A DNA stretch of 63,935 nucleotides, the filler included, from Candidatus Zapsychrus exili (GTDB lineage: Bacteria; Omnitrophota; Gorgyraeia; Zapsychrales; Zapsychraceae), in assembly GCA_030765585.1 (NCBI GenBank). It is 5 parts of 5 records of this genome, joined end to end, with 100 filler letters (N's around TTAATTAATTAA, not from the genome) between each part and the next. Parts side by side here need not be neighbours in the genome. Positions count along the whole stretch, not along the records: positions 25,242 to 54,380 come from JAVCCJ010000097.1; 4 more parts are not named here. One strand, given 5' to 3'. The notes under the pieces are model-generated. The model did no database searches and was not told the DNA's origin. It saw nothing but the letters and a program-made list of their open reading frames with translations. The position numbers and the translations under genes are program-made. Shown piece after piece: positions 14,244 to 45,757 of the stretch. The number at the start of each line of letters is the position of its first letter. Position 1 is the stretch's first letter.

Positions 14244-14343
14244 NNNNNNNNNNNNNNNNNNNNNNNNNNNNNNNNNNNNNNNNNNNNTTAATTAATTAAN
14301 NNNNNNNNNNNNNNNNNNNNNNNNNNNNNNNNNNNNNNNNNNN
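14244..14343. other. Artificial contig linker (Ns plus TTAATTAATTAA)
   Basis: 100 nt with six-frame-stop spacer; same design at four places. Confidence 0.97.
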
Positions 14344-16124
14344 ATGTTAGAAACATAAAGAGTGTCAGCAAAAGGCTTGTTTTTATTAAGCCACTCATTA
14401 AGTTTATTAAAGAAATCTGAATTAAAATAATCCTGGTTAATGGCAATTATTCTATCCTCAATAAACATCTTACGAATATGCTGGAATGTTTTTTCATATT
14501 TAACAAATCCAAACATAAAATTTTCCAAATTATAGAGCAAGTTTCCAACTTTAACGCTTAAAACTCCTACTTTTTTTTGAGCGTAATGATCTTTAATGCG
14601 TTCTGAAAGCTTTTTCGTAAAAATACTCGCATTTACAGTGTCGTTTTGTTTCATAATATTAGAAATAATTTTAAAAAGCTCCATTACTTCCGGATTAATG
14701 TCAATAATTATTCCATATTGAGATTTTCGAGAAGCCATAATATCTAAATTTTGCAACCCTGATGTCCCTATATGAACACGTATTTCATTTTCATAAAAAG
14801 GAGTACTGCCCCACAACTCCGAAAGCATTTCATCAAATTTACTTTCATTGGTATGGAAGAATGGTATGGAAGAATGAATTTCAATCTCTTCAGGTAGTAG
14901 CTCTAAGGCCTTAAGCTCTTTTAATTTTACAGCTGGTCCATCAAAAGCATCTTCAACCTTATAGTTTTTATAACGCTGCTGCATAACATAACGTGGAGAA
15001 TCTCTATCTGCTACCATCGCTTTATCAGTTGGCTTTAGCTCAACTGTCACATTTTGCGAACCCTTTGCGCTTAATATTGCTTTATCCGAAACAGTATCAA
15101 CCTCTTTATACGCAGTCAAAAGCGCCTGATCAAATTCCACACCACCAGAAAAATATTTCTTAGGAATTATTTGTTTAATTATTGGGTCATATTCTTCTTT
15201 TATGTAGTTATAAGCGCCGTCTTTAAACATTTTAAGATACTGATTATATATCTGCTTAGGATTTCTATCTTTTGCTTCTAATCCTTTAATCTTGTCTTGA
15301 TTTACATATACCTTAGATAAAATAGATGTCTTTAAGTTGCGCTTGTACCAAGTAGCGAGTATTAAAGAATTATATATCTGGCGTAACGGAGCAAAGGCTG
15401 ATGCCTCATTTACTTGATGCTCTAGTTCAGGGACAATTATTGATTTAATTAAATCAACGTTTAAATTCTTATCTAGAGCTTCCTTACCACTATTCGCCAA
15501 ATACTCTTCTTCTAAAAGCACCTTAAGTTTTGCTTCAACGACAAACGCAGTATTATCATTAGTGTATACAGTAGCCTTAGAAGGCACTATCCAAACTCTG
15601 TTTAAAATATCAGTATCTATATCAGTCGTTCCATATTGTTCTTGTGCTTGAGCGTATATCTTATCCCAAAACTTCTTACCTGCCTCTGCCTTTGGATGCA
15701 TTAAAGATGCTGTTATTTGTTTTAATATATAGTCCTGTGCTAGTAAGTCGCGACCCATTTCAGTTGTTCCAAAAGATTCTTCAACTATCCTATCAGGCTG
15801 TTTAGGGTTTAGATTAACCCACATATCAGATTCTTTTGTGGTTAAAGAAGCTAGAAAATACTTAATAAGCTTGGTTGATTGATCTTTTATATCCCTAGAT
15901 TCAGAATCAACAATAAAATCGAATTTTAAAGGATTATTAGGATAAACTTTGAGGCCTTTTATGATTGTAGGACTTAAGAGAGAGTTTGATACAGCAGGCA
16001 GGCTTATATTAGCTATTTGGGCATAACTAGGTATAATAGTACTAAAAACAAAGAAAAATAGCATAAAAATACTAATTATCTTAGAAAAGAACCTATTTTT
16101 TAAATTATATATATAAAAAGACAT
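14344..16124 (-). CDS. Secreted modular protein, paralog 1 (conserved N-terminal domain plus DKAM-initiated SAM-methyltransferase-like module); 3' end cut by gap
   Basis: Signal-peptide-like N-terminus (...VFSTIIPSYA|Q); N-terminal ~365 aa closely match 42620-45757 (NPLKFDFI, KLIKYFLASLT, GRDLLAQDYILKQITASLMHP, LRQIYNSLILATWYK, PKKYF.GG). Confidence 0.85.
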
Positions 16125-16248: not shown

Positions 16249-19155
16249 CTAAATATCTAGTACAAAATCAACATCTGGATTTAGTATCTCACTTACAACA
16301 AAATCCAATGATTTCAAGAAAACCTGATTTATTTGATCATAGGAGTAATTTGACTTAGGATTGATAAATCTATGCATAACAAGCGTACGTAGATTATAAA
16401 GAGCAGCATCAATAGTCTCACCCTTAAACTCCTTGCTCAAATAATTAAAATAAAGCGGAACCTGAAAAGACTTTATATTGTCCCTGATTGATTCTCTAGA
16501 CAATTTCATAGAGGCAAACTTTTCAATATCATTTGCCAACTTTTCAGCTATACCTGTCTTATAATCTATAACCATAACCGTGCCATCTTTTAATCTATCA
16601 ATTCTATCAACTATATACCTAAATTTTATCTTTCCGCAAGAAAGCTCAATTGAATCTTCAAAATTATTCTCTAAAAACATAATCTTCTCTATCTGTCTTT
16701 GTTCGTTTGTTCTTTCATTTTCTAAAAATCTACTTAAACGTTCCCTGATTACGCTTTTAAGCAAAAACGCATCTGATTTCATTGACTTTTCAAATGTGTC
16801 GGTAAATTTATCCTCAAACATATCAAAAAACTTGTTCTCAAATGCTTTATCAATAATAGGGACTTTATTAACAAAAGGTTTAAAAGCATCTTCTAGTAAT
16901 TCATGAACAAAAGTTCCGACATGTCTTGCTTCTGGCTCATCAAGCAAATCATCAGTCTCTCTTAAGCGCAAAACATAATTATAATAAAACTCCATTGGAT
17001 TCTTAAGATAGGTATTTATGCTAGACGCTGAGAAAGTATGCCCTTTTAAAAATTCAACCATCTCTTTTGTCTTTTTAACAGCGACCTCTTTTTTATGCAC
17101 TTTAACATCAAAACTTGCTTGTTTTATATCTATAACATCTATTTTATTTTCTTTCTTTTGTTGATCCCAAATCAACTCCTCAATAAAACGACTCTTCTCT
17201 TTTTCTTTGCTCTCTTGATAAATCAAATGAACATTTTTGGCAGACGATATAATGCGCATAAATTGATATCTTTGAATTTCTTCCTCCAGTTCCAATCTAT
17301 CAAGCCCTAGACTTATCATAATCTCTCTTGGTATAAGCGGCTCATACACATTAAGCTTGGGTAAAACTCCTTCATTAACATCTAAAACAATTACATTCTC
17401 AAAATTTAACGACCTTGTTTCAAGGAGCCCTAAGACTTGAAGCCCTTTAAGAGGAGAACCAGAAAACGAAATAACCTCACGAGATATTTTATTATCAAAT
17501 ATCCTAAATATTTCTCGAGAATCTAGTTTCTCATCAACAAAAGAAACATTATCAAACTCTTCTTTTATTCTATACATCCTCTCTGCTATATTTATGTTCA
17601 AAGGATAATTCTTTAAAAAACTTTTATTTACTAATATATCCAAACAATTTTGTAAAGAACAAGAAAAATCTTTTAAGCTTGTTATGTTCTCCCAACCTTT
17701 AAAAACAATCTCGTGTATTTGCTTTAAAGTCTCAACTAATTCTTCTCTTTTAACTTCTATTTTAAGTCGTTTGGTCGTCTCTAACGTTAACGAATAAAGT
17801 TCATCTAACTTCTCTATTGAATCTAAACTAACAAAAGAACTTCCTGATATATCTGTCTTTTGTTTCCCAGTTAATATCTCCTCTATTTTATGCATTAAGA
17901 TTCTTGTAGCTGACACATCAGCGGCTATATGCAAATTCTTTACAAACGGATGCGACAACGCCTTAATATAATCTTTTGTATAATATTTGTTAGTTTTAAA
18001 AGTTTTTTGACTATTTATAATAAGCCCTAACAGCGAGTATAGACTGCTTCTTTTTAAAGGATATCCTACAGAAACATTAAAATTGTCTGATAAAGATGAT
18101 ATCTCGCCTATAAGCGGAATTACAGCCTCGGGATTAGGCAAAACTATAAGCGTATTATCTGTTTTCTTTATTGTTTTTAAAACATGTTTTGCTAATCCTA
18201 CTTGAGCGTGTACATCAAAACCTGAATAAATATTTAAATTAAATTCTGGCCTTTTAATACTCCCGACTTTTCCTAAACTTTTAGACGGTGGTCGGGATCC
18301 CGACTTTTTCGATTTATAATCGGGAAATGTCAAGACCTCTTCTATCTTACAATTAAAACTTTTTTGTATCCTCTCTAATATAGGCCATCTTTTAGCATCA
18401 CCCTGAAAAATAAGAGTTGCTTTATCCTTCTTATAAAGACTTTTTATAACGTCTTCTTCTGTTTTATGAAAATAAAAGAAATTACAAAATAAAATTTGAT
18501 CAAACTCATCAAAAGCTATATCCTCTACACACTTCGATGCAAATAAATATTGATACCCTCGAGAATAAGTATTCTGACTTTCTAGCGACTTATGATATTC
18601 TTGTCTTAAAAGCAAAACGCTCTTTAATATTTTGTTTATATCATCAGGCACATCATAACCTATCTCGGCGTTTGCACGAACCTGCAATAAAGCATCATTG
18701 CTTATATTTTCTATATCCAGAGAATCAATAAATCTTAATATTTCGCGTGCCCACGGCAAAAATTTATCAAAACTCTCTCTGCCCTCTAAAATATCGCAAG
18801 ACACATCTTGCGCAAGCTTATATATAAGATAGCAATTATCTAAATCTGAAATTACACCAAATGATTTCTTTTTTCGTGCTGTAAAAGAAATAAATTCATC
18901 AATAGAGAAAAATCTTGGAGGATAAAAACTAGTATTAAGTTCTTTCGCTAGCTTTCTTTTTAAAAACAAAGATGGACGTTTGCCTCCAAAGACAATTGCC
19001 ACGCGAGACAAATCTGGGGGACAGTCTCGCGGGACTGACCCCTTTGGGGTCTGTCCCTTTTGGGACAGTCCCCTATCTATATAATTTTCTTTTATATAGC
19101 ATTTAAGATTCTCTAAGAAATCTTCACAAAAACTATATGTAATAACTTTACCCAT
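16249..19155 (-). CDS. addB: AddB-like protein (inactive helicase-like body plus C-terminal PD-(D/E)XK nuclease)
   Basis: GLQVLGLLETRSLNF, FSASSINTY, VDRIDR...VIDYKTG and QVPLY motifs; paired with AddA-like gene. Confidence 0.8.
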   Translation of the reverse strand: MGKVITYSFCEDFLENLKCYIKENYIDRGLSQKGQTPKGSVPRDCPPDLSRVAIVFGGKRPSLFLKRKLAKELNTSFYPPRFFSIDEFISFTARKKKSFGVISDLDNCYLIYKLAQDVSCDILEGRESFDKFLPWAREILRFIDSLDIENISNDALLQVRANAEIGYDVPDDINKILKSVLLLRQEYHKSLESQNTYSRGYQYLFASKCVEDIAFDEFDQILFCNFFYFHKTEEDVIKSLYKKDKATLIFQGDAKRWPILERIQKSFNCKIEEVLTFPDYKSKKSGSRPPSKSLGKVGSIKRPEFNLNIYSGFDVHAQVGLAKHVLKTIKKTDNTLIVLPNPEAVIPLIGEISSLSDNFNVSVGYPLKRSSLYSLLGLIINSQKTFKTNKYYTKDYIKALSHPFVKNLHIAADVSATRILMHKIEEILTGKQKTDISGSSFVSLDSIEKLDELYSLTLETTKRLKIEVKREELVETLKQIHEIVFKGWENITSLKDFSCSLQNCLDILVNKSFLKNYPLNINIAERMYRIKEEFDNVSFVDEKLDSREIFRIFDNKISREVISFSGSPLKGLQVLGLLETRSLNFENVIVLDVNEGVLPKLNVYEPLIPREIMISLGLDRLELEEEIQRYQFMRIISSAKNVHLIYQESKEKEKSRFIEELIWDQQKKENKIDVIDIKQASFDVKVHKKEVAVKKTKEMVEFLKGHTFSASSINTYLKNPMEFYYNYVLRLRETDDLLDEPEARHVGTFVHELLEDAFKPFVNKVPIIDKAFENKFFDMFEDKFTDTFEKSMKSDAFLLKSVIRERLSRFLENERTNEQRQIEKIMFLENNFEDSIELSCGKIKFRYIVDRIDRLKDGTVMVIDYKTGIAEKLANDIEKFASMKLSRESIRDNIKSFQVPLYFNYLSKEFKGETIDAALYNLRTLVMHRFINPKSNYSYDQINQVFLKSLDFVVSEILNPDVDFVLDI
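18261..18325. repeat. In-frame palindromic element (TCCCGAC/GTCGGGA units) inside addB-like gene
   Basis: TCCCGAC 18261, GTCGGGA 18291, TCCCGAC 18298, TCGGGA 18320; encodes a low-complexity loop FPDYKSKKSGSRPPSKSLGKVG. Confidence 0.7.
19016..19073. repeat. In-frame palindromic element (GGGACAGTCCC-type units x4) inside addB-like gene
   Basis: GGGGGACAGTCTC, GGGACTGACCCC, GGGGTCTGTCCC, GGGACAGTCCCC; GC-rich island encoding GLSQKGQTPKGSVPRDCPP. Confidence 0.8.
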
Positions 19156-22100
19156 TTATTTCCTCTAAACTTAACTTATCTAAATACAATAAATACCCCT
19201 TCACTTCTTGCTTTGGATAAATATCTTTTAAGATATCCATATATGTTTTAACTTGGTTTACATATTCTTTTGAATCACTTGGCTCTGAAAGCTTATAATC
19301 CAAAATCGTTATAGTATCGCGACTAACAATCAATCTATCAATACGCTTTGTAAAACCATTCTTATCGACGATATCTTTCTCATTAAAAGCTTCTGCATCA
19401 TCCAAATAGAAAAACTTTTTTAAAGTTGCATCTTTTAAAATATCCTCAACTTTTGATTTTATTTGTTCTATATCAACTTTTTTACCAAATCTAAAAGCTA
19501 AATCTTCAAATAATAAATCCAAGTTTTTGCTTACATCTTCTTTGTTTAAGTCCCCTATAAGTGATAGCGCAAAATGAAGAGCCTCTCCTTTTATGCGTTT
19601 ATCTCTATTTCTTAATTGATCAATACAGACAAACTCTTCTTTTAAGAAATGTATCCAATCGCAATGCTCTGACGCAGGAATATTAACAAGCGAGACATCT
19701 TTCTTTTCTTTTGTTTCTGCTTTGTCTTTCTTTCCCATTTCATAAGCACTCTCTGGAATCAAGAATTTAAGCAAATTGAAACTATTGCCCACCTTCTTAG
19801 GAATGAAGGCATACAGCTCTTCTTTACTCCTAGTTGTTGCGACATAAATATTATTTAATTCTGATAAAAAAGCTTTTAAATACTGCTCTTTATAAATTTG
19901 ATAAAGCTCATCAGAGAATTTATAATATTTTTCTTTTAATTTGATAAGACTAATAGAAGAACCATCATTTCTTAAAACATAAGACTGCTTATTATCCGAT
20001 GAGTTAGACCCAACTTGCACATCTATACCTAAAAATGGCAATATAACTACGCCAAATTCAAGGCCTTTGGCCTTATGAACCGTTAATACTTTGATAGCGT
20101 CCTTACCCTTTACATTGACATACAAGCTATCGCCTTCTAAGTTATCAAAATAATCAATAAATGAAAGTATGTCTGAATACTGCTCTTCTTGTGCCTTTAT
20201 TAAATTTAAAAAGTGCATCAAAAATCCTTGGTACTCTGAGAAATTATTTAAAACTTTAAACTTTCCTAAAATACTTGCAACCATCTCATACAAAGGATAA
20301 AGCCCAACATTCTTAAAAAACTCCTCAAGATAATTCTTCCAAATATCAGGATAAGCATCTCTAAACTCCATATAAACATACAAATCTTTTTCACTTTCTA
20401 TTTTCTGACGTAAACTAAATACAAACTTATGCATTTCCTCTTTTGCGACACCTGTGCCGACAGAAAATATATCTCCTAAAATAAAATTAACAAAAGAAAT
20501 ATTATCAATCGGAGAGTCTAAAAACTTTAAAAAAGAAATCAATTCTTCTATTAAGTGGCTATCTCTTACATTTGATGTTCTTTCAGACTCAACTGGTATA
20601 TTCTCCCCTAGGAGCCAATTTGTCACAGATTCCACCTGAGAATTATTTCGCGTCAAAACAGCTATATCAGAATAAGAAAATCGTTTCTTCAAATCAGCAA
20701 CCAAAGAAATGATCTTATCGCGAGTCACCTCATCTCTTTCTTCTTTCTTATCTATATCTACGTACTCTACTTTCACATAACCATCGCCACCTCGCTTAAC
20801 TTCTTGCTGCGCGCTACCAAAAATATTCTCAACCTCTACAAAATCTGATTCTTCAAAAATAACTCTGGTGGCTTTCTTTTTCTTATTTTCATAATCTTGT
20901 TTTAAAGAAACAAAAGACTTTAAATTTTCTATCGAGAAAATAGAATTATTAAACTCAACAACCGCTTTCTTACTTCTATAATTGTCCGTCAAACGCTCTA
21001 AACCTACGTTAAACTGATTGAAATCTTGCTTTATTTTGTCAAAAAGCTCAACATCTCCTCCTCTAAATCCATATATTGCCTGCTTCTTATCCCCGACGTA
21101 GAAAAGCGTTCCGCCAGTAGATAGTGCCTCTTCTATCATTTCTTTTAAATTGTCCCACTGCAAAGCAGATGTATCTTGAAACTCGTCTATCAAATAATGA
21201 CGAAACCGTGTTGCAAGTCTATAGTAAAGTTCTGCAACGGTTATATGGCCCTCACCAAAAAGAAGCTCACATTTTTTATTTAACTCTTCTAAAAACAATA
21301 CATCTTCAGAACAAGATAATTCCTTAAATATATCTTTTACCTGATCAAATATACCAACATAAAGATTAAACAAAGATTGTGACTCGCCAACGCACAACTC
21401 TTTTAAATTTTTGTGTATAGAGCTCCAAAGAGTCTCAACCTCTTTTGATATCTCTGTTTTAGCTTTTGCGGGAAAGACTTCTCTTGCGAAATAATTTGAT
21501 ACGCTATCTATATCAAAACTTTTCTTTGTATTACTTAAAAACTTATTTAAACTTTTTGTAAATCGGGCATCAGTTTCTTTTGGCAAAATAATTGCAAGAT
21601 CATTTATCTTTTTTAATATTTTTATTTTCTTCTTTATCAAATCGCCAGACTCAAATTTACCTTTCTTAAAATCATGTCCATAAGTATTATTCTGCCTAAA
21701 AAGATCATGAACAATACTTAACATATCGTCTTTTGGAAACCATCCTGAGCGATTTTCTAAATACAAATAATTGTGTAAAAACTCTTCGAAGATTTGCGCT
21801 ATATCTTTGTCTGTGTGTGCGTAATCAATTAGCTTGTCTAAACTATAATGAAACTGCTGTGCAGAATTAGTCCTTATCTTAAAATTCGCAGTTAAACCCA
21901 CCTTAAAAGCACAGCCTGACAAAAGAGCATTTATAAATTTGTCAATCGTTTGCACTCCAAAGAAATTATAATGATGTATCAAGTCTTCCATTATTATAAG
22001 CGCTCGCTCTTTTGCCTCTTGCTTATTTATTCCTATGGAAGACAATATCTCTCGCTCGTCTGTCGCAGACAACTTTCCTAATGCAATTAGCTTTAAGAAC

Positions 22101-22309
22101 TCTAAGATGCGACCCTTCATTTCAAAGGCAGCTTTATTAGTAAAAGTAATGGCCAATATATTTCTAATTGGTATATGTTCAGATTGAATGTTTGGATTAA
22201 ATAAAAGCTGCAGATATCTCTTTGCAAGTGCATAGGTTTTGCCTGAACCGGCAGACGCCTCAACAACACGAACTTCGGGAGACTTAAATATAGTTTTATT
22301 TTTTGTCAT
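19148..22309 (-). CDS. addA: AddA-like UvrD helicase with C-terminal PD-(D/E)XK nuclease
   Basis: ASAGSGKT, AITFTNKAA, IDEFQDT, VGDKKQAIYGFRG, TVHKAKGLEF, YVATTR and RIDRL...LDYK motifs. Confidence 0.88.
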   Translation of the reverse strand: MTKNKTIFKSPEVRVVEASAGSGKTYALAKRYLQLLFNPNIQSEHIPIRNILAITFTNKAAFEMKGRILEFLKLIALGKLSATDEREILSSIGINKQEAKERALIIMEDLIHHYNFFGVQTIDKFINALLSGCAFKVGLTANFKIRTNSAQQFHYSLDKLIDYAHTDKDIAQIFEEFLHNYLYLENRSGWFPKDDMLSIVHDLFRQNNTYGHDFKKGKFESGDLIKKKIKILKKINDLAIILPKETDARFTKSLNKFLSNTKKSFDIDSVSNYFAREVFPAKAKTEISKEVETLWSSIHKNLKELCVGESQSLFNLYVGIFDQVKDIFKELSCSEDVLFLEELNKKCELLFGEGHITVAELYYRLATRFRHYLIDEFQDTSALQWDNLKEMIEEALSTGGTLFYVGDKKQAIYGFRGGDVELFDKIKQDFNQFNVGLERLTDNYRSKKAVVEFNNSIFSIENLKSFVSLKQDYENKKKKATRVIFEESDFVEVENIFGSAQQEVKRGGDGYVKVEYVDIDKKEERDEVTRDKIISLVADLKKRFSYSDIAVLTRNNSQVESVTNWLLGENIPVESERTSNVRDSHLIEELISFLKFLDSPIDNISFVNFILGDIFSVGTGVAKEEMHKFVFSLRQKIESEKDLYVYMEFRDAYPDIWKNYLEEFFKNVGLYPLYEMVASILGKFKVLNNFSEYQGFLMHFLNLIKAQEEQYSDILSFIDYFDNLEGDSLYVNVKGKDAIKVLTVHKAKGLEFGVVILPFLGIDVQVGSNSSDNKQSYVLRNDGSSISLIKLKEKYYKFSDELYQIYKEQYLKAFLSELNNIYVATTRSKEELYAFIPKKVGNSFNLLKFLIPESAYEMGKKDKAETKEKKDVSLVNIPASEHCDWIHFLKEEFVCIDQLRNRDKRIKGEALHFALSLIGDLNKEDVSKNLDLLFEDLAFRFGKKVDIEQIKSKVEDILKDATLKKFFYLDDAEAFNEKDIVDKNGFTKRIDRLIVSRDTITILDYKLSEPSDSKEYVNQVKTYMDILKDIYPKQEVKGYLLYLDKLSLEEING

Positions 22310-36909: not shown

Positions 36910-37548
36910 TTAAGGCAAGGCGACTTTAAAAGTCTTTCGATGAATTTCTGAGGGACCAAATTCTCTAATAGCAAGCCTGTGTTGTAATGTTCCGTATCCT
37001 TTGTGCTTCTTAAAACCATACTCTGGAAAAATCTTATCGTATATCGCTATCATTCTGTCTCTTGTAACCTTAGCCACTATTGACGCACAAGAAATAGAAA
37101 AAACATGATTATCTCCGCCTACAACAGTTTTGTAAGGATAAGGAGACTTTAGCATAAATTTGTCTCCGTCTACTAGAAGACATATTTTGCTTTTGAAATT
37201 TTGTTCTTTGGTTATTTCTTCTGGCAGCTGTGAGACAAGATGCTCAACAGCATTTCTCATCGCGTAAAATGTAGCACGAAGAATATTGTGCTGGTCTATT
37301 ACAAGTTCGTTTATTACACCAACACCCACGTAGGCCTTTTCATATATTTCACAAAATGCCTTTTCTCGCTTTGACGCAGAAATCTTTTTTGAATCGCATA
37401 TTTTATTTTGGAAGTCTTCTGTGCGAACAGCAACTGCAGATGCAACTACTGGACCTGCTAAAGGTCCACGCCCGGCCTCATCGATGCCGACAATCAAGTC
37501 AAAACCTTTTTCTTTGACCTTATTTTCGTATTCTAACATTTGGGTCAT
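36910..37548 (-). CDS. rnhB: Ribonuclease HII
   Basis: GIDEAGRGPLAGPV, DSKK, ASIVAKVTRD and HKGYGT motifs. Confidence 0.96.
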   Translation of the reverse strand: MTQMLEYENKVKEKGFDLIVGIDEAGRGPLAGPVVASAVAVRTEDFQNKICDSKKISASKREKAFCEIYEKAYVGVGVINELVIDQHNILRATFYAMRNAVEHLVSQLPEEITKEQNFKSKICLLVDGDKFMLKSPYPYKTVVGGDNHVFSISCASIVAKVTRDRMIAIYDKIFPEYGFKKHKGYGTLQHRLAIREFGPSEIHRKTFKVALP

Positions 37549-42619: not shown

Positions 42620-45600
42620 TTATCCTCTTAGATATACAGGATATTCTTCTTTGAGGTCTGCTGATTTACCGTGAGTTTCTTTCTGCGATCCATATTCTTC
42701 TGGAAAGTTTTCGTCTTCAGCAATACCAAGCAACATTGGAATTTGTGCTGGTGCGATTGGCATAATATTAAGAATAACTGGAGTTAGTCCATTGATTTCT
42801 ATATTTTCAAACTCTTCTAAATTATAAAAACTATCAAAATCTATTTCCGCACCCTTGCTCTCTATCTTTAGCTTCTCAGCGTTTAAGTCAATACCACCAA
42901 CCTCCTTTGTCACCATCGCATTGTCTACATCAACGCTACTTTCAAATATTTCATCTATAACTTTTATTGAACCATCAATATCCGCATGTATATCATTAAA
43001 ATCAATTCTATCTTTAAGCTTTTGACTAACATATTGAAGCTTTGCATCTTTAGCATCATCTTCCGCATAAGAACCTTTATAAAAATATCCTGTTGTTTTT
43101 GTGCCTACATCTCTAAAATTGCCACTTGTTTTTCCAGCTAATACAATATCTTCATCTGAAATATCACCTTTTTTACTTTTCCTGCCCTGCGTCACTATCA
43201 ATTCTCCGGGAGAATCAATAATAGTTAAAGGAGTCCATCCGACCATCATACTCAATCCTCTTTTATTCTTCGTATTGTCTCCTGTACCTTTGCTTGTCCA
43301 TATAGCTTCGCTTGGAGACATTGTCCATTTCTCTCCATTATCCATAATGTGTATCTTGCTATAATTCTTTTTTCTCTCGACAACAACTATACCAATTCCA
43401 CGCTCAACATGCTGGAATGTATTCTCCAAAGCAAAAGCTACAAAGTTTTTCTCTTCCCTGCTAAACTTCCCTTCAAAAGATTTGTTTCTTTCTAATTCAA
43501 CCGATATATCTCTATGTTCAACATAATTATTATCCTCTGGTTTTATATGCACATCACTATCCCTGCTCTTACCTTCAAAATCATTATCAAGAAATGCTAC
43601 CGCAAATACACCTTCTTTTTTATTTAGCTCATCAACTGTCGCGTGAAGCTTTTCCCAAAGATTAATATCAAAATCTTTTTCTTTGAGATCTTTCGGTGTA
43701 GGTATACTTTTCTGCGCTACACTTATCAACTCCTGGTTTAAAAAATTGCTCAAAGAAACATTGTCGCCCATCATCGCAGAATCTTCTGCTAAATTAATAT
43801 TTGAAAAAATAGTAACACCGCGAGATTCCATGCTTTTTTTGAGCTCGTCCTTTCGACGTTTTAACTTATTATTTTTAACATATAAATTCTGCCCATTAGG
43901 ATTATCTAGAATTTCTTCCTCCAATCCTTCTATTTCTTTCTTTAATAAACCTATATCTTCAAAAAACATAAGATAATTATTCAATTTTTGCAACACCAGC
44001 ATAAGTTCTTCAAAAGTCAACTGAACAAAATTTAAACCATTAGAAGAAGAAATCTGTCCTGCCATAGGCCTAAAATTTTCATCTAACATGCCCCAAAATT
44101 TAAAAGCCTCCTTTTCATAAAGCTCCTTAAAATTACTATTTCCTTTTATATCGCTATAATCATCATCAAACTTAGATGGATAAAATTCTAAAGCAAAAAA
44201 TCCAAAATTCTTATCTCCTAAAATTATTATACCCTTTTTAACACCTAATTCTTTAGCTTTTCTAATATCAGCAGAATTAAGGCTTATAGTAATATATCCT
44301 CGCCGAATAGGATGAGTATGCACCCAAATGCCATCTTTATACTTGCTTAATAAGTTGGGGGTAATAAAAGTCCCCACAAAACTTTCACCTCCAGAATTAG
44401 CAATGATAGGAATGCCATAGCGATCAAATCCGCTTTGCGCTTCTATTTTCTGTTCCACTAAAATATTCATAATATTAATTAAATGTTTTACCGCTCCACC
44501 AGTACCCGAAATAGGAAACGCTGCAGGATTAAAACGCTCGTCAATATCAACAACCCCGCCACTCAAAGAATCTTGCGTCACCATCGCATAATCAGAAGCT
44601 ACAGAAATTTTGTTCTCTATGGCAAAATTAGTCTCCACCAACATTGCGTTATCTAGATTTACATCTTGCGCACGACCTGTTGTTTCTAATATTTTGCTTA
44701 TCGTTGCAAAATCTTTACCACCGCAAAAATACTTCTTAGGAATTAAAGACTTAGTGGCTGGATCATATTCTTCTTTTATATAATTATAAGCACCATCTTT
44801 AAATGTTTTAAGATACTGATCATATATCTTAAGCTTTTCTTGCTTGTCTTTTATTTCAACACCGGGAGTTTTGTTTTGATCAACATATTTACGCCCCAGC
44901 AAAGATTCTTTTAGATTTCGTTTATACCAAGTAGCGAGTATTAAAGAATTATATATTTGACGCAAAGGAGCAAAAGCTTGACCTTGGTTTACCTGACGTT
45001 CTAATTCTGGAATGATGACTGATTTTATGATGCTCAATTCTAGATGCTGGATGCTGGATATTTTGTTTTGTTTTTTGCTAGTATCTAGTATCGAGGATCT
45101 AGGATCTAGATACTCCTCTTCTAATAATACTTTAAGCCTGCTTTCTACTACAAAAGCTCTATCTTCTGCTTCATAAACAACTGCACGCTCAGGCACTATC
45201 CAAACACGATTCAATACATCAGTATCTATATTAGTTGTTCCGTATTTATCAAAAGCTTGCTTATATATTTTCTCCCAGAATTTTTTACCTACTTCCCCTT
45301 CAGGATGCATTAGAGATGCTGTTATTTGTTTTAAAATATAATCTTGAGCTAGAAGGTCGCGACCCATTTCAGTAGACCCAAAAGAATTCGGAATTATTTT
45401 ATCTGGTTGTTTAGGATTTAAATTGACCCACAAATCATTTTCTTTAGTTGTTAAAGATGCTAGGAAGTATTTGATAAGTTTAGTTGATTCAATTTTAAAA
45501 ACTTCACCTGAGGCCTTTGATTTGCCAGAATCTATAATAAAATCAAACTTTAGAGGATTCTCTGGATAAAGCTTAAGACCTTTTATGATGGGAACTGAAC

Positions 45601-45757
45601 CTACGCCAACGCCAAGTGCTGACAATGGTTGAATTAATATAGATTGCTGGGCAAAAGATACAGGGGTAATGGTAGACAAAACAAAGCATACTATAATAAA
45701 TATTGATATTACTTTATATATTGGTGATCTTTTAATAATGCCGCCCCTTAAAGTCAT
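42620..45757 (-). CDS. Secreted modular protein, paralog 2 (conserved N-terminal domain, JAB-like module, GHKL-like module, GGIDLN C-terminal domain)
   Basis: Signal-peptide-like ...STITPVSFA|Q; N-terminal domain shared with 14344-16124; DxAM motifs at 44642, 44582, 43772 and 42914. Confidence 0.88.
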   Translation of the reverse strand: MTLRGGIIKRSPIYKVISIFIIVCFVLSTITPVSFAQQSILIQPLSALGVGVGSVPIIKGLKLYPENPLKFDFIIDSGKSKASGEVFKIESTKLIKYFLASLTTKENDLWVNLNPKQPDKIIPNSFGSTEMGRDLLAQDYILKQITASLMHPEGEVGKKFWEKIYKQAFDKYGTTNIDTDVLNRVWIVPERAVVYEAEDRAFVVESRLKVLLEEEYLDPRSSILDTSKKQNKISSIQHLELSIIKSVIIPELERQVNQGQAFAPLRQIYNSLILATWYKRNLKESLLGRKYVDQNKTPGVEIKDKQEKLKIYDQYLKTFKDGAYNYIKEEYDPATKSLIPKKYFCGGKDFATISKILETTGRAQDVNLDNAMLVETNFAIENKISVASDYAMVTQDSLSGGVVDIDERFNPAAFPISGTGGAVKHLINIMNILVEQKIEAQSGFDRYGIPIIANSGGESFVGTFITPNLLSKYKDGIWVHTHPIRRGYITISLNSADIRKAKELGVKKGIIILGDKNFGFFALEFYPSKFDDDYSDIKGNSNFKELYEKEAFKFWGMLDENFRPMAGQISSSNGLNFVQLTFEELMLVLQKLNNYLMFFEDIGLLKKEIEGLEEEILDNPNGQNLYVKNNKLKRRKDELKKSMESRGVTIFSNINLAEDSAMMGDNVSLSNFLNQELISVAQKSIPTPKDLKEKDFDINLWEKLHATVDELNKKEGVFAVAFLDNDFEGKSRDSDVHIKPEDNNYVEHRDISVELERNKSFEGKFSREEKNFVAFALENTFQHVERGIGIVVVERKKNYSKIHIMDNGEKWTMSPSEAIWTSKGTGDNTKNKRGLSMMVGWTPLTIIDSPGELIVTQGRKSKKGDISDEDIVLAGKTSGNFRDVGTKTTGYFYKGSYAEDDAKDAKLQYVSQKLKDRIDFNDIHADIDGSIKVIDEIFESSVDVDNAMVTKEVGGIDLNAEKLKIESKGAEIDFDSFYNLEEFENIEINGLTPVILNIMPIAPAQIPMLLGIAEDENFPEEYGSQKETHGKSADLKEEYPVYLRG

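Follow-up and report, generated by a model that had tools for sequence, protein, structure and literature searches.

A family of cassette-built proteins of Candidatus Zapsychrus exili with conserved ends, a putative Sec-type export signal and a short motif at domain boundaries

The window analysed here is a stretch of 63,935 nucleotides from Candidatus Zapsychrus exili, and its focal feature is an open reading frame (ORF) of the minus strand (Table 1). Translation bears out the layout which the original prediction had claimed for this ORF of 1045 aa: the tetrapeptides DYAM, DSAM and DNAM fall exactly at 44593, 43783 and 42925, the motif D-x-A-M being found at residues 369, 389, 659 and 945, and the two modules are reproduced with their sizes of 270 aa (A) and 286 aa (B). 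The start does resemble a signal peptide, with a basic n-region, a hydrophobic core of about 15 residues and S-F-A followed by Q (a heuristic assignment), while the tail begins DNAMVTKEVGGIDLN. The head is common to a second ORF of the window (59% identity over 383 aa, E 2e-139), whose cargo, DUF7790, is a different one. As had also been noticed, no immunity-like small gene lies 3' of the focal ORF: the next gene, 145 bp downstream, encodes a SpoIID-like (SpoIID-domain) protein of 390 aa. A scan for promoters and terminators stayed at the level of shuffled sequences, no c-di-GMP riboswitch matched Rfam at gathering score anywhere in the window, and the focal gene contains no in-frame palindromic repeats.

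Table 1. Features of the focal ORF and of its paralog, in window coordinates
Feature	Residues	Position	Strand	Basis or remark
Whole ORF	1045 aa + stop	42620..45757	-	
Signal-peptide-like N-terminus	1-36	45650..45757	-	basic n-region, hydrophobic core, SFA/QQ; heuristic; AF2 helix 12-30
Conserved head, end ...KKYFCGG	37-368	44654..45649	-	homology; AF2 pLDDT 68
D-N-A-M no. 1	369-372	44642..44653	-	motif scan
Spacer mini-module, 20 aa	372-391	44585..44644	-	flanked by two D-x-A-M
D-Y-A-M no. 2	389-392	44582..44593	-	motif scan
Cassette A, 270 aa, orphan	392-661	43775..44584	-	HTHP...SAD, JAB-like by eye only
D-S-A-M no. 3	659-662	43772..43783	-	motif scan
Cassette B, 286 aa, without named family	662-947	42917..43774	-	core related to C26 ORF and C39 cassette
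D-N-A-M no. 4, opens tail	945-948	42914..42925	-	motif scan, tail alignment
Tail, 98 aa: GGIDLN ... GLTPVILNIMPI ... PMLLG, then acidic extension	948-1045	42623..42916	-	
GGIDLN	954-959	42881..42898	-	predicted lowest-error head contacts at I956/D957
In-window paralog: head + DKAM + DUF7790 cargo		14292..16124	-	3' end lost in N run

The claim that modules A and B resemble enzymes was not confirmed by sequence searches. The whole focal protein matches no Pfam family at E<=0.01, and its cassettes and tail match none at E<=10; for the two cassettes PHROGs, PADLOC and PDB sequences gave no match, NCBIfam gave noise only (best E 0.076), and two homolog database searches (148-473 aa and 574-1829 aa) returned nothing except the focal protein itself. 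This leaves "enzyme-like" unproven for them. In cassette A a pattern HTHP...SAD, to be compared with E...HxH...S..D of JAB/MPN metalloproteases, can be seen by eye and the atlas gives a weak lead to Prok-JAB (score 0.86, 13% of one cluster); Pfam and PHROGs gave no match. The atlas offers no lead for cassette B. Its core has two relatives, a stand-alone ORF of 499 aa on contig C26 and one cassette of the C39 polyprotein; a local iterative HMM search linked it to these two only, and not to the HATPase_c cassettes.

Collecting relatives by head and tail, as the original prediction had proposed, recovered a large family. The source genome (2.04 Mb) holds 17 head-bearing and 18 tail-bearing ORFs, the family amounting to about 97 kb, nearly 5% of the genome. 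A search with the head gave 7,906 representatives of 50% identity clusters at E<=1e-3 and 6,125 at E<=1e-30, hundreds of proteins matching the focal head with E between 1e-110 and 1e-169. The head, of about 350 aa, is N-terminal, starting within the first 76 residues, in all 150 relatives listed (protein lengths 420-4,536 aa). Relatives which have a name are called Omnitrophota or Omnitrophica. Among 151 phylum-sampled genomes the head is present in 15, all labelled as the same order or class, and a single genome has up to 21 matches; the family is confined to one class of what the names of the relatives indicate to be Omnitrophota. The head is followed by cassettes which are each roughly as large as an entire protein, and complete copies end in a tail of 60-100 aa (GGIDLN...PVIINITPI...LLG); the focal tail can be aligned with 15 further tails of the same genome, and a tail lies within the last 150 aa in 120 of 170 outside relatives. 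Family comparison thus supports the notion of a cassette-built protein with constant head and tail.

Five of the paralog genes are interrupted, three by in-frame stops (TAA, TAG and TGA) and two by frameshifts, which means that part of the family may be decaying, or that the assembly is imperfect. A single stop-codon recoding was rejected because each of the in-frame stops is a different codon. In another genome, a divergent homolog of 421 aa carries YFSGGVDL directly after the head; it may represent a cargo-less ancestor, and it remains a lead because the match of the tail HMM comes down to 7 residues there (E 0.05-0.33).

We counted the boundary motif inside and outside the family. D.AM occurs 81 times in 32,364 family residues as against 47 times in 577,560 residues of other ORFs (about 31-fold), with the consensus D-[KNQE]-A-M-[VILM]-[AST]. 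In the 170 outside relatives there are 357 occurrences, compared with 15-27 for the scrambled controls M.AD, A.DM and D.MA and 89-98 for near-variants such as D.AL, D.AV and DA.M. None of 61 occurrences in 37 outside relatives falls inside a Pfam stretch, where 13.2 would be expected (binomial p 3e-7). In paralog C80, PGK (1189-1640) and enolase (1641-2096) are flanked by the motif, as are UDPGP, PFK and PGI in paralog C83; the PGK and enolase cassettes end at most 4 residues past the native C-terminus and start 8-25 residues before the first conserved block. Several paralogs have, like the focal protein, a spacer of 20-36 aa after the head. The cargo differs among the 17 paralogs and between genomes. 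Hence motif positions are not random relative to domain boundaries and cargo order is not fixed by descent, because the motifs mark boundaries and the cargo changes among copies and genomes. Two DNA metagenome runs yielded short identical contigs only, which are uninformative on cassette swapping.

In other lineages A-S-S-P-V or D-x-S-M replaces D-x-A-M at the same positions. The alternative punctuation SSP[VILA] is found 84 times in the 170 outside relatives, compared with 10-14 times for its controls; 98 of these proteins have D.AM only, 25 SSP only, 16 both and 31 (about 18%) neither. Another candidate punctuation, R-S/A-E-x-R, is not enriched (7 occurrences, compared with 5-17 for controls). 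As judged from its codons, the motif is under selection at the level of the protein; its Asp codons are mixed as in the rest of the genome. A recombination site or an internal start as the cause of the motif was rejected, given the variation at synonymous sites and the lack of a Shine-Dalgarno-like pattern upstream.

The paralog cargos which can be identified are enzymes of central metabolism and regulatory enzymes. They include the series GAPDH-PGK-enolase-aldolase, its GAPDH cassette being preceded by a region of 450 aa, and UDPGP-PFK-PGI(-PGM), together with PEP-utilising domains on contigs C13 and C119. The cassette cargo of this genome includes a near-complete second glycolysis (PGM, PGI, PFK, aldolase, GAPDH, PGK, enolase and PEP-utilising enzymes). 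Stand-alone genes for GAPDH, PGK, enolase, PFK, PGI and Gmk are also present elsewhere in the genome: the glycolytic cassettes are extra copies beside the housekeeping genes. Cassette enzymes and stand-alone copies share 29-43% identity, and the motifs SCTTN, RVDFNVP/GGGDS and SHRSGET are kept. The enolase cassette is peculiar to this genome, none of 40 other genomes in the order having a second enolase. Sister proteins thus bear duplicate glycolytic and sugar-nucleotide enzymes which are catalytically intact, and this suggests that the duplicates are meant to act outside the cytoplasm of the producer.

The N-termini point in the same direction. By inspection and a simple script, both heuristic, the Sec/SPase I features (basic n-region, h-region of 7-15 residues, small-x-small site) are found in 14 of 17 heads, with [small]-x-[A/G]-Q at residues 27-37, and the head-bearing proteins have almost no further hydrophobic segment, the tail excepted. 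The N-terminal helix could instead be an uncleaved anchor, keeping the cargo at the membrane inside the producer. The cargos, being classic cytoplasmic enzymes with intact active-site motifs, would suit this arrangement; however, basic residues precede the hydrophobic core and an AxA-Q site follows it in those 14 copies, which predicts an N-in/C-out topology, and housekeeping copies of the enzymes are already present. We therefore regard an anchor of this kind as highly improbable.

The head itself has no invariant Cys, His or Ser in the family alignment, and neither the single sequence nor the profile gave anything meaningful in Pfam, NCBIfam, PHROGs, PADLOC or PDB sequences. The sole matches of the profile, a Huntingtin HEAT-like family and a designed protein, were dismissed, the HEAT-like one having come from cargo columns. 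The AF2 model is of mixed alpha/beta type with long helices; at a pLDDT of only 68, it gave no fold match, the best structural hits being at E 0.13 (Foldseek, PDB), Z 3.8 (VIA-align wide) and E 0.06 (BFVD), and none of the Foldseek and VIA matches has the TIKI/TraB/GumN fold. TraB_PrgY_gumN (PF01963) is likewise absent from the 25 families shown of 95 obtained with 57 head-bearing sequences at E<=1.

Modelled alone, the tail has a pTM of 0.21 and no strands, and is thus predicted to lack a fold of its own. Modelled with the head, it gives ipSAE values of 0.78, 0.79 and 0.75, the best control reaching 0.00, with contact agreement of at least 70% between runs and partner pLDDT of at least 57. 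Of 157 solved complexes 116 attain this ipSAE mark, as do 2 of 215 mismatches, a calibration which is rough only, as the models were made with our own unpaired alignments; the score expresses the confidence of the model. The predicted lowest-error contacts join I956/D957 of the tail to W110, V111, D139, W186-V188 and L265 of the head, and the predicted interface takes in 16 of 38 invariant head columns as against 64 of 296 others (Fisher p 0.007). The tail is thus predicted to dock on an invariant face of the head, both ends forming one composite clasp.

Such docking would also suit a scaffold in which the chains stay uncleaved and tethered, the motif being a conserved hinge or cap, and in which docking closes rings or daisy-chains paralogs into an array bound to the surface or the membrane. 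It would amount to a non-covalent counterpart of the multi-enzyme proteins of more than 10,000 aa reported in Omnitrophota. The heads and tails of all paralogs are compatible, and the cargo split over the chains is coherent as a pathway, with upper glycolysis on C83, lower glycolysis on C80 and the PEP-utilising part on C13/C119; moreover, 10.64898/2026.06.07.730766 describes giant multi-enzyme proteins which bear signal peptides. But there is no need for a passive hinge to conserve a motif of four residues or to exchange it wholesale between lineages, and junctions of about 4-10 residues between enzymes which are usually dimers or tetramers look sterically awkward. We consider the scaffold unlikely.

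The reading towards which we lean, by a small measure, is that of a Sec-exported carrier with docked head and tail, whose cassettes a lineage-matched protease would cut apart at the motif. The chain would be exported by Sec, head and tail would associate as a clasp within one chain or between chains, the protease would separate the cassettes, and the released enzymes would act outside the producer's cytoplasm, whether on the cell surface, in the periplasm or inside a host or prey to which the producer is attached. The cassettes are probably released at the motif, because the cargos are joined from near a native C-terminus to a native N-terminus and because the motif differs by lineage. Against the carrier stand the 31 outside relatives which have neither motif, the five interrupted paralog genes, and the fact that glycolytic enzymes need ATP or NAD, which makes them odd outside a cytoplasm. 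No candidate for such a protease was identified.

The original prediction had gone further, to a MARTX-like multi-effector for delivery into a host or prey cell, with DxAM as a site of processing between A and M which would free Met-initiated effectors. Taken as a toxin, the protein would be injected and would process itself at this site. MARTX toxins of Vibrio have conserved ends, an exchangeable array of effector cassettes and processing between the cassettes. The conserved ends and exchangeable cassettes are found here too, with an export signal and with extra enzymes able to act in another cytoplasm, and the genome-specific enolase cassette fits the fast turnover of effector repertoires. 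The analogy is nevertheless unsupported: no toxin, RTX, cysteine protease (CPD, inositol-phosphate-activated in MARTX) or defence family was matched, RTX/GD-rich repeats are lacking, there is no type-I-like architecture, immunity gene or recognised translocation module, and the cargo of the paralogs is metabolic or regulatory rather than toxic. Type I secretion of MARTX uses a C-terminal signal, whereas the signal here is N-terminal and of Sec type; no T1SS genes were recognised among the annotated neighbouring ORFs. Predatory or host-dependent lifestyles have been proposed for the phylum (PMC10066038; 10.1101/2023.11.21.568195), which would accommodate a toxin; we give it little credence.

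The carrier can also be set beside other systems with constant ends or strings of domains. In polymorphic toxins a short motif marks the switch from constant to variable sequence (VENN in CdiA, PxxxxDPxGL in Rhs), and a single C-terminal toxin is accompanied by an immunity gene. This family likewise has a short conserved motif at the constant/variable border; unlike them, it has several cassettes, a constant tail after the cargo and no immunity gene here. TpsA proteins of two-partner secretion and PE-PPE proteins place an N-terminal domain, signal or constant and a few hundred residues long, ahead of long variable passengers, which is functionally analogous to a head that serves as a handle for secretion or recognition; here the head model is not a beta-helix, and no transporter gene is adjacent. 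The polyvalent proteins of phages and conjugative elements, reportedly described by Iyer et al. in 2017, are said to combine unrelated enzyme domains in a row, and it has been proposed that they are delivered and then cut into pieces. In contrast, the present family is chromosomal, multi-copy and signal-peptide-bearing, has constant ends, and gave no phage family match in PHROGs.

The giant proteins of Omnitrophota, the same phylum by the names of the relatives, commonly have signal peptides and reach at least 10,000 aa (10.1101/2023.11.21.568195 and 10.64898/2026.06.07.730766). The former preprint (West-Roberts et al., 2023) raises cleavage of the chains and states that the cleavage points are unknown. 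Their cargo is shared with our family as regards HATPase_c, methyltransferase, GNAT, NUDIX, PPDK_N, PGM, radical SAM and HEAT, whereas our chains measure 0.5-4.5 kaa, their ends are constant and their boundaries have been mapped. Term searches and passages of the two preprints yielded no conserved head, tail or boundary motif, and "linker" and "cleav" have 0 occurrences in the searched text of 10.64898/2026.06.07.730766. New here are the predicted docking of the tail on the head, and A-S-S-P-V in place of D-x-A-M in some lineages.

We found no description in print of head, tail or boundary motif, and this very large family is still without a Pfam or NCBIfam model. Since the motif coincides with domain limits, it provides candidate cleavage sites which are directly testable, and the predicted head-tail clasp is a concrete interface which can be mutated. 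It is conceivable, if improbable, that a clasp with inserted cassettes is cut at lineage-specific motifs and that its cargo is delivered into a host or prey cell, where it would redirect the flow of carbon and energy. If this were true, it would constitute a bacterial "metabolic effector polyprotein" system and would supply the missing cleavage map for the giant proteins of Omnitrophota. The putatively exported second set of glycolytic enzymes is relevant to the nutrition of these ultra-small and probably host-dependent bacteria.

The gene under study is a genuine feature, ordinary as a gene and remarkable as a member of a family. Its product begins with a basic stretch followed by a hydrophobic core of about 15 residues and then by S-F-A|Q-Q; the head ends in ...KKYFCGG at about residue 347, the motif D-x-A-M occurs at residues 369, 389, 659 and 945, and two cassettes, the first of 270 aa and the second of 286, precede a tail of 98 aa starting DNAMVTKEVGGIDLN. 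This is the anatomy which had been claimed from the sequence (signal-like start, head, modules, tail), and the nucleotide positions 44593, 43783 and 42925 given there for D-x-A-M agree with ours. The neighbors are housekeeping genes (RuvB, ScpA, a TrpS/TyrS-class synthetase, IF-2, QueA, Tgt, TrmD), and, as originally noticed, no immunity-like small gene follows: the next one, 145 bp downstream, encodes a 390-aa SpoIID-domain protein. We found no in-frame palindrome in the gene and no riboswitch in the window. A Sec signal is predicted, by heuristic, on the proteins of the family; the alternative, in which the cargo would be anchored in the cytoplasm, appears to us very improbable.

Features of the window and of the genomes compared (C, contigs of the source genome; L, loci)
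Feature	Position	Strand	Content
Gene under study, 3,138 nt, 1045 aa	42620-45757	minus	head, two cassettes, tail
In-window paralog	14292-16124	minus	head, DKAM, DUF7790 cargo; 3' end cut by N run
Two adjoining large genes	16249-22309	minus	resemble an AddAB-type helicase-nuclease pair: UvrD helicase and PD-(D/E)XK; second gene PD-(D/E)XK
Fusion gene, 720 aa	11630-13792	minus	RmlD/epimerase-like reductase domain and DegT/DnrJ/EryC1 aminotransferase
Polyprotein, 2,991 aa	C80 (L011)		head, GAPDH, PGK, enolase, class-II aldolase, tail
Polyprotein	C83		head, UDP-glucose pyrophosphorylase, PFK, PGI; after TGA phosphoglucomutase
Other paralogs			methyltransferases, GNATs, HATPase_c, NUDIX, guanylate kinase, PEP-utilising domains, HTH arrays
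Interrupted family genes	C39, C67, C83, C73, C119		loci L013/L034, L025/L035, L014/L033, L019/L020, L018/L027
Stand-alone ORF, 499 aa	C26:1719-3218 (L031)		no Pfam family
Giant ORF, 9,937 aa	C24, from base 37451 (first 20 kb, L032)		no head or tail; DEAD/ResIII helicase domain
Homolog in another genome of the class, 421 aa	L036:538-1803	minus	signal peptide, divergent head only

The head common to this gene and to the in-window paralog is 59% identical over 383 aa (E 2e-139), as had been proposed, and past DKAM the cargo of the paralog differs (DUF7790, E 2e-16). The paralog is truncated because the window consists of several contigs joined, 25242-54380 being a single one; given the N run and the contig join at 14292-14350, its 3' end is therefore missing rather than absent.

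In the source assembly (2.04 Mb, 129 contigs, 96% complete) there are 17 ORFs with a head and 18 with a tail, of 84 to 2,991 aa, and the whole family amounts to 24 ORFs, 32,364 residues and about 97 kb. Five of these genes are interrupted, three by a single in-frame stop (TAA in C39, TAG in C67, TGA in C83) and two by a frameshift (C73 and C119). The three stops being three different codons argues against recoding; the splits could be due to decay, to strain mixture or to assembly error. Outside the source genome, a search with the head alone gave, for clusters at 50% identity, 7,906 representatives with E<=1e-3 and 6,125 with E<=1e-30. In each of the 150 proteins listed, which are 420 to 4,536 aa long, the head begins no later than residue 76; the named relatives are Candidatus Omnitrophota/Omnitrophica, one being labelled Desulfobulbaceae. 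Among 151 sampled genomes of the phylum, 15 have the head (at most 21 matches per genome), all of them labelled as of the same order or the same class. The tail motif lies within the last 150 residues in 120 of 170 outside relatives, and the precomputed cargo families of the relatives are very diverse.

The motif D-x-A-M occurs 81 times in the 32,364 residues of the source-genome family, and 47 times in the remaining ORFs of 150 aa or more (577,560 residues), which is an enrichment of about 31-fold; its local consensus is D-[KNQE]-A-M-[VILM]-[AST]. The codons of its Asp (61 GAT, 20 GAC) follow the mix of the genome and the synonymous positions vary, and therefore the constraint is on the peptide and not on a DNA site. 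One can notice that the Ala codon before Met is skewed, GCA or GCG (a purine before ATG) being found at 69 of the 81 sites against 53% genome-wide. In the 170 outside relatives, D-x-A-M is counted 357 times against 15 to 27 for the scrambled controls M.AD, A.DM and D.MA, while the near-variants D.AL, D.AV and DA.M reach 89 to 98. The motif marks domain boundaries, as predicted: 41 relatives were chosen because a Pfam domain had already been computed for them, and in the 37 where one was recovered at E<=1e-5 none of the 61 motifs after residue 300 falls within a Pfam stretch when 13.2 are expected (p 3e-7), many of them being at most 20 residues from a domain edge. In some lineages, A-S-S-P-[VIL] is found at the same places instead, also just before the tail; SSP[VILA] is counted 84 times against 10 to 14 in controls, and among the 170 relatives 98 have D-x-A-M alone, 25 have SSP alone, 16 have the two together and 31 lack them. 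A third variant is D-x-S-M, and R-S/A-E-x-R is not enriched over controls. The giant ORF of C24 has six D-x-A-M between residues 3932 and 6263, so that the same punctuation may extend to the giant protein of the source genome.

We assigned the cargo of the paralogs with Pfam, on 20 paralogs and on the piece following the stop of C83. The enzymes are tightly bracketed by the motif (for example PGK 1189-1640 and enolase 1641-2096): cassettes start 8 to 25 residues ahead of the first conserved block and end at most 4 past the native C-terminus. Thus each cassette is in essence a complete protein, the end of one being joined to the start of the next. The source genome has elsewhere stand-alone genes for GAPDH, PGK, enolase, three PFKs, PGI and Gmk; the enzyme cassettes are extra copies beside these genes, with 29-43% identity to them and with the catalytic signatures SCTTN, RVDFNVP/GGGDS and SHRSGET retained. 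We found no second enolase in 40 further genomes of the order; 37 of them gave one match each, in open frames of 346-532 aa about 40% identical to the enolase cassette; the latter is specific to the source genome. In the C80 polyprotein, about 450 aa ahead of the GAPDH cassette (residues 391-842) and about 250 aa ahead of the aldolase match (2200-2455) have no Pfam family and could hide missing glycolytic steps, such as triose-phosphate isomerase or mutase.

The two cassettes of the gene under study had been described as enzyme-like. This was not borne out, and is unproven for this copy since they match nothing in database searches: there is no match in Pfam (E<=10), PHROGs, PADLOC or PDB sequences, NCBIfam gave noise only, and two large homolog searches gave no relatives. 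The first has a weak JAB-like lead, with an HTHP...SAD string seen by eye. The core of the second, about 125 residues, is common to a cassette of the C39 polyprotein and to the stand-alone ORF of C26. The original prediction stands firmly for the architecture of a polyprotein and poorly for the analogy with toxins; that the cargo is an effector or a toxin injected into another cell is quite unlikely.

We favour cleavage at the motif over no cleavage, because in a passive linker one would expect neither the conservation of a specific motif of four residues nor its wholesale replacement, because the junctions are too short for oligomeric enzymes to fold comfortably side by side, and because each cassette is a whole protein. 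The chain would be exported, a protease matched to the lineage would cut it at the motif, and the cargo would act outside the cytoplasm of the producer. An array of enzymes remaining tethered and uncleaved is a rather unlikely alternative, to which we still give some weight.

In an alignment of 57 heads, 38 columns are invariant, mostly aromatic residues, Gly and Pro, with a few polar ones (D139, K143, K209, N257, R266, Q267) and no Cys, His or Ser. The AlphaFold model of the head is mixed alpha/beta (pLDDT 68, pTM 0.63), and with a model of this confidence neither Foldseek (best E 0.13 in PDB, 0.06 in BFVD) nor VIA-align against 48,161 chains (best Z 3.8) gave a fold match; a TIKI/TraB-like head was not recovered, PF01963 being absent from the 25 listed of the 95 families matched by the 57 heads at E<=1. 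By itself the tail does not fold in modelling (no strands, pTM 0.21). Folded together, head and tail gave ipSAE values of 0.78, 0.79 and 0.75 against 0.00 in all three controls, with at least 70% of the contacts common to the runs and a partner pLDDT of at least 57; of 157 solved complexes 116 attain the calibration mark, as do 2 of 215 mismatches, counts which are only rough here because our own alignments were used. In the predicted complex, the contacts of lowest error set I956 and D957 of GGIDLN against W110, V111, L135, D139, W186-V188 and L265 of the head, and the next tail strand packs on head strand 192-195. The interface holds 16 of the 38 invariant head columns against 64 of the 296 other positions (p 0.007). 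The two constant ends are thus predicted by modelling to form one composite unit, within or between chains. The heads finish with YFSGG, after which x-D-[LF]-A-M often comes, and a GG-x-D/E-L/F-like sequence is present in 41 of 177. The 421-aa homolog has YFSGGVDL where the polyproteins have YFSGG...cargo...GGIDLN; the tail HMM matched only those 7 residues, not significantly. From its sequence it is possibly a cargo-less relative, and one lead is that cargo may have been inserted into a once-continuous head-tail domain.

Giant Omnitrophota proteins are treated in the main text of 10.1101/2023.11.21.568195, where cleavage is suspected and its points are said to be unknown, and that of 10.64898/2026.06.07.730766 reports multi-enzyme clusters of metabolism within proteins of 10 kaa or more, most of which carry signal peptides or TM helices; neither 'cleav' nor 'linker' occurs in the text of the latter. 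Term searches in the main texts of these two papers and of PMC10066038 gave no description of the head, the tail or the motif, and a full-text literature search gave no paper on Omnitrophota and polyprotein. What is new here is the predicted clasp between head and tail, together with a spare glycolytic cargo specific to this genome.
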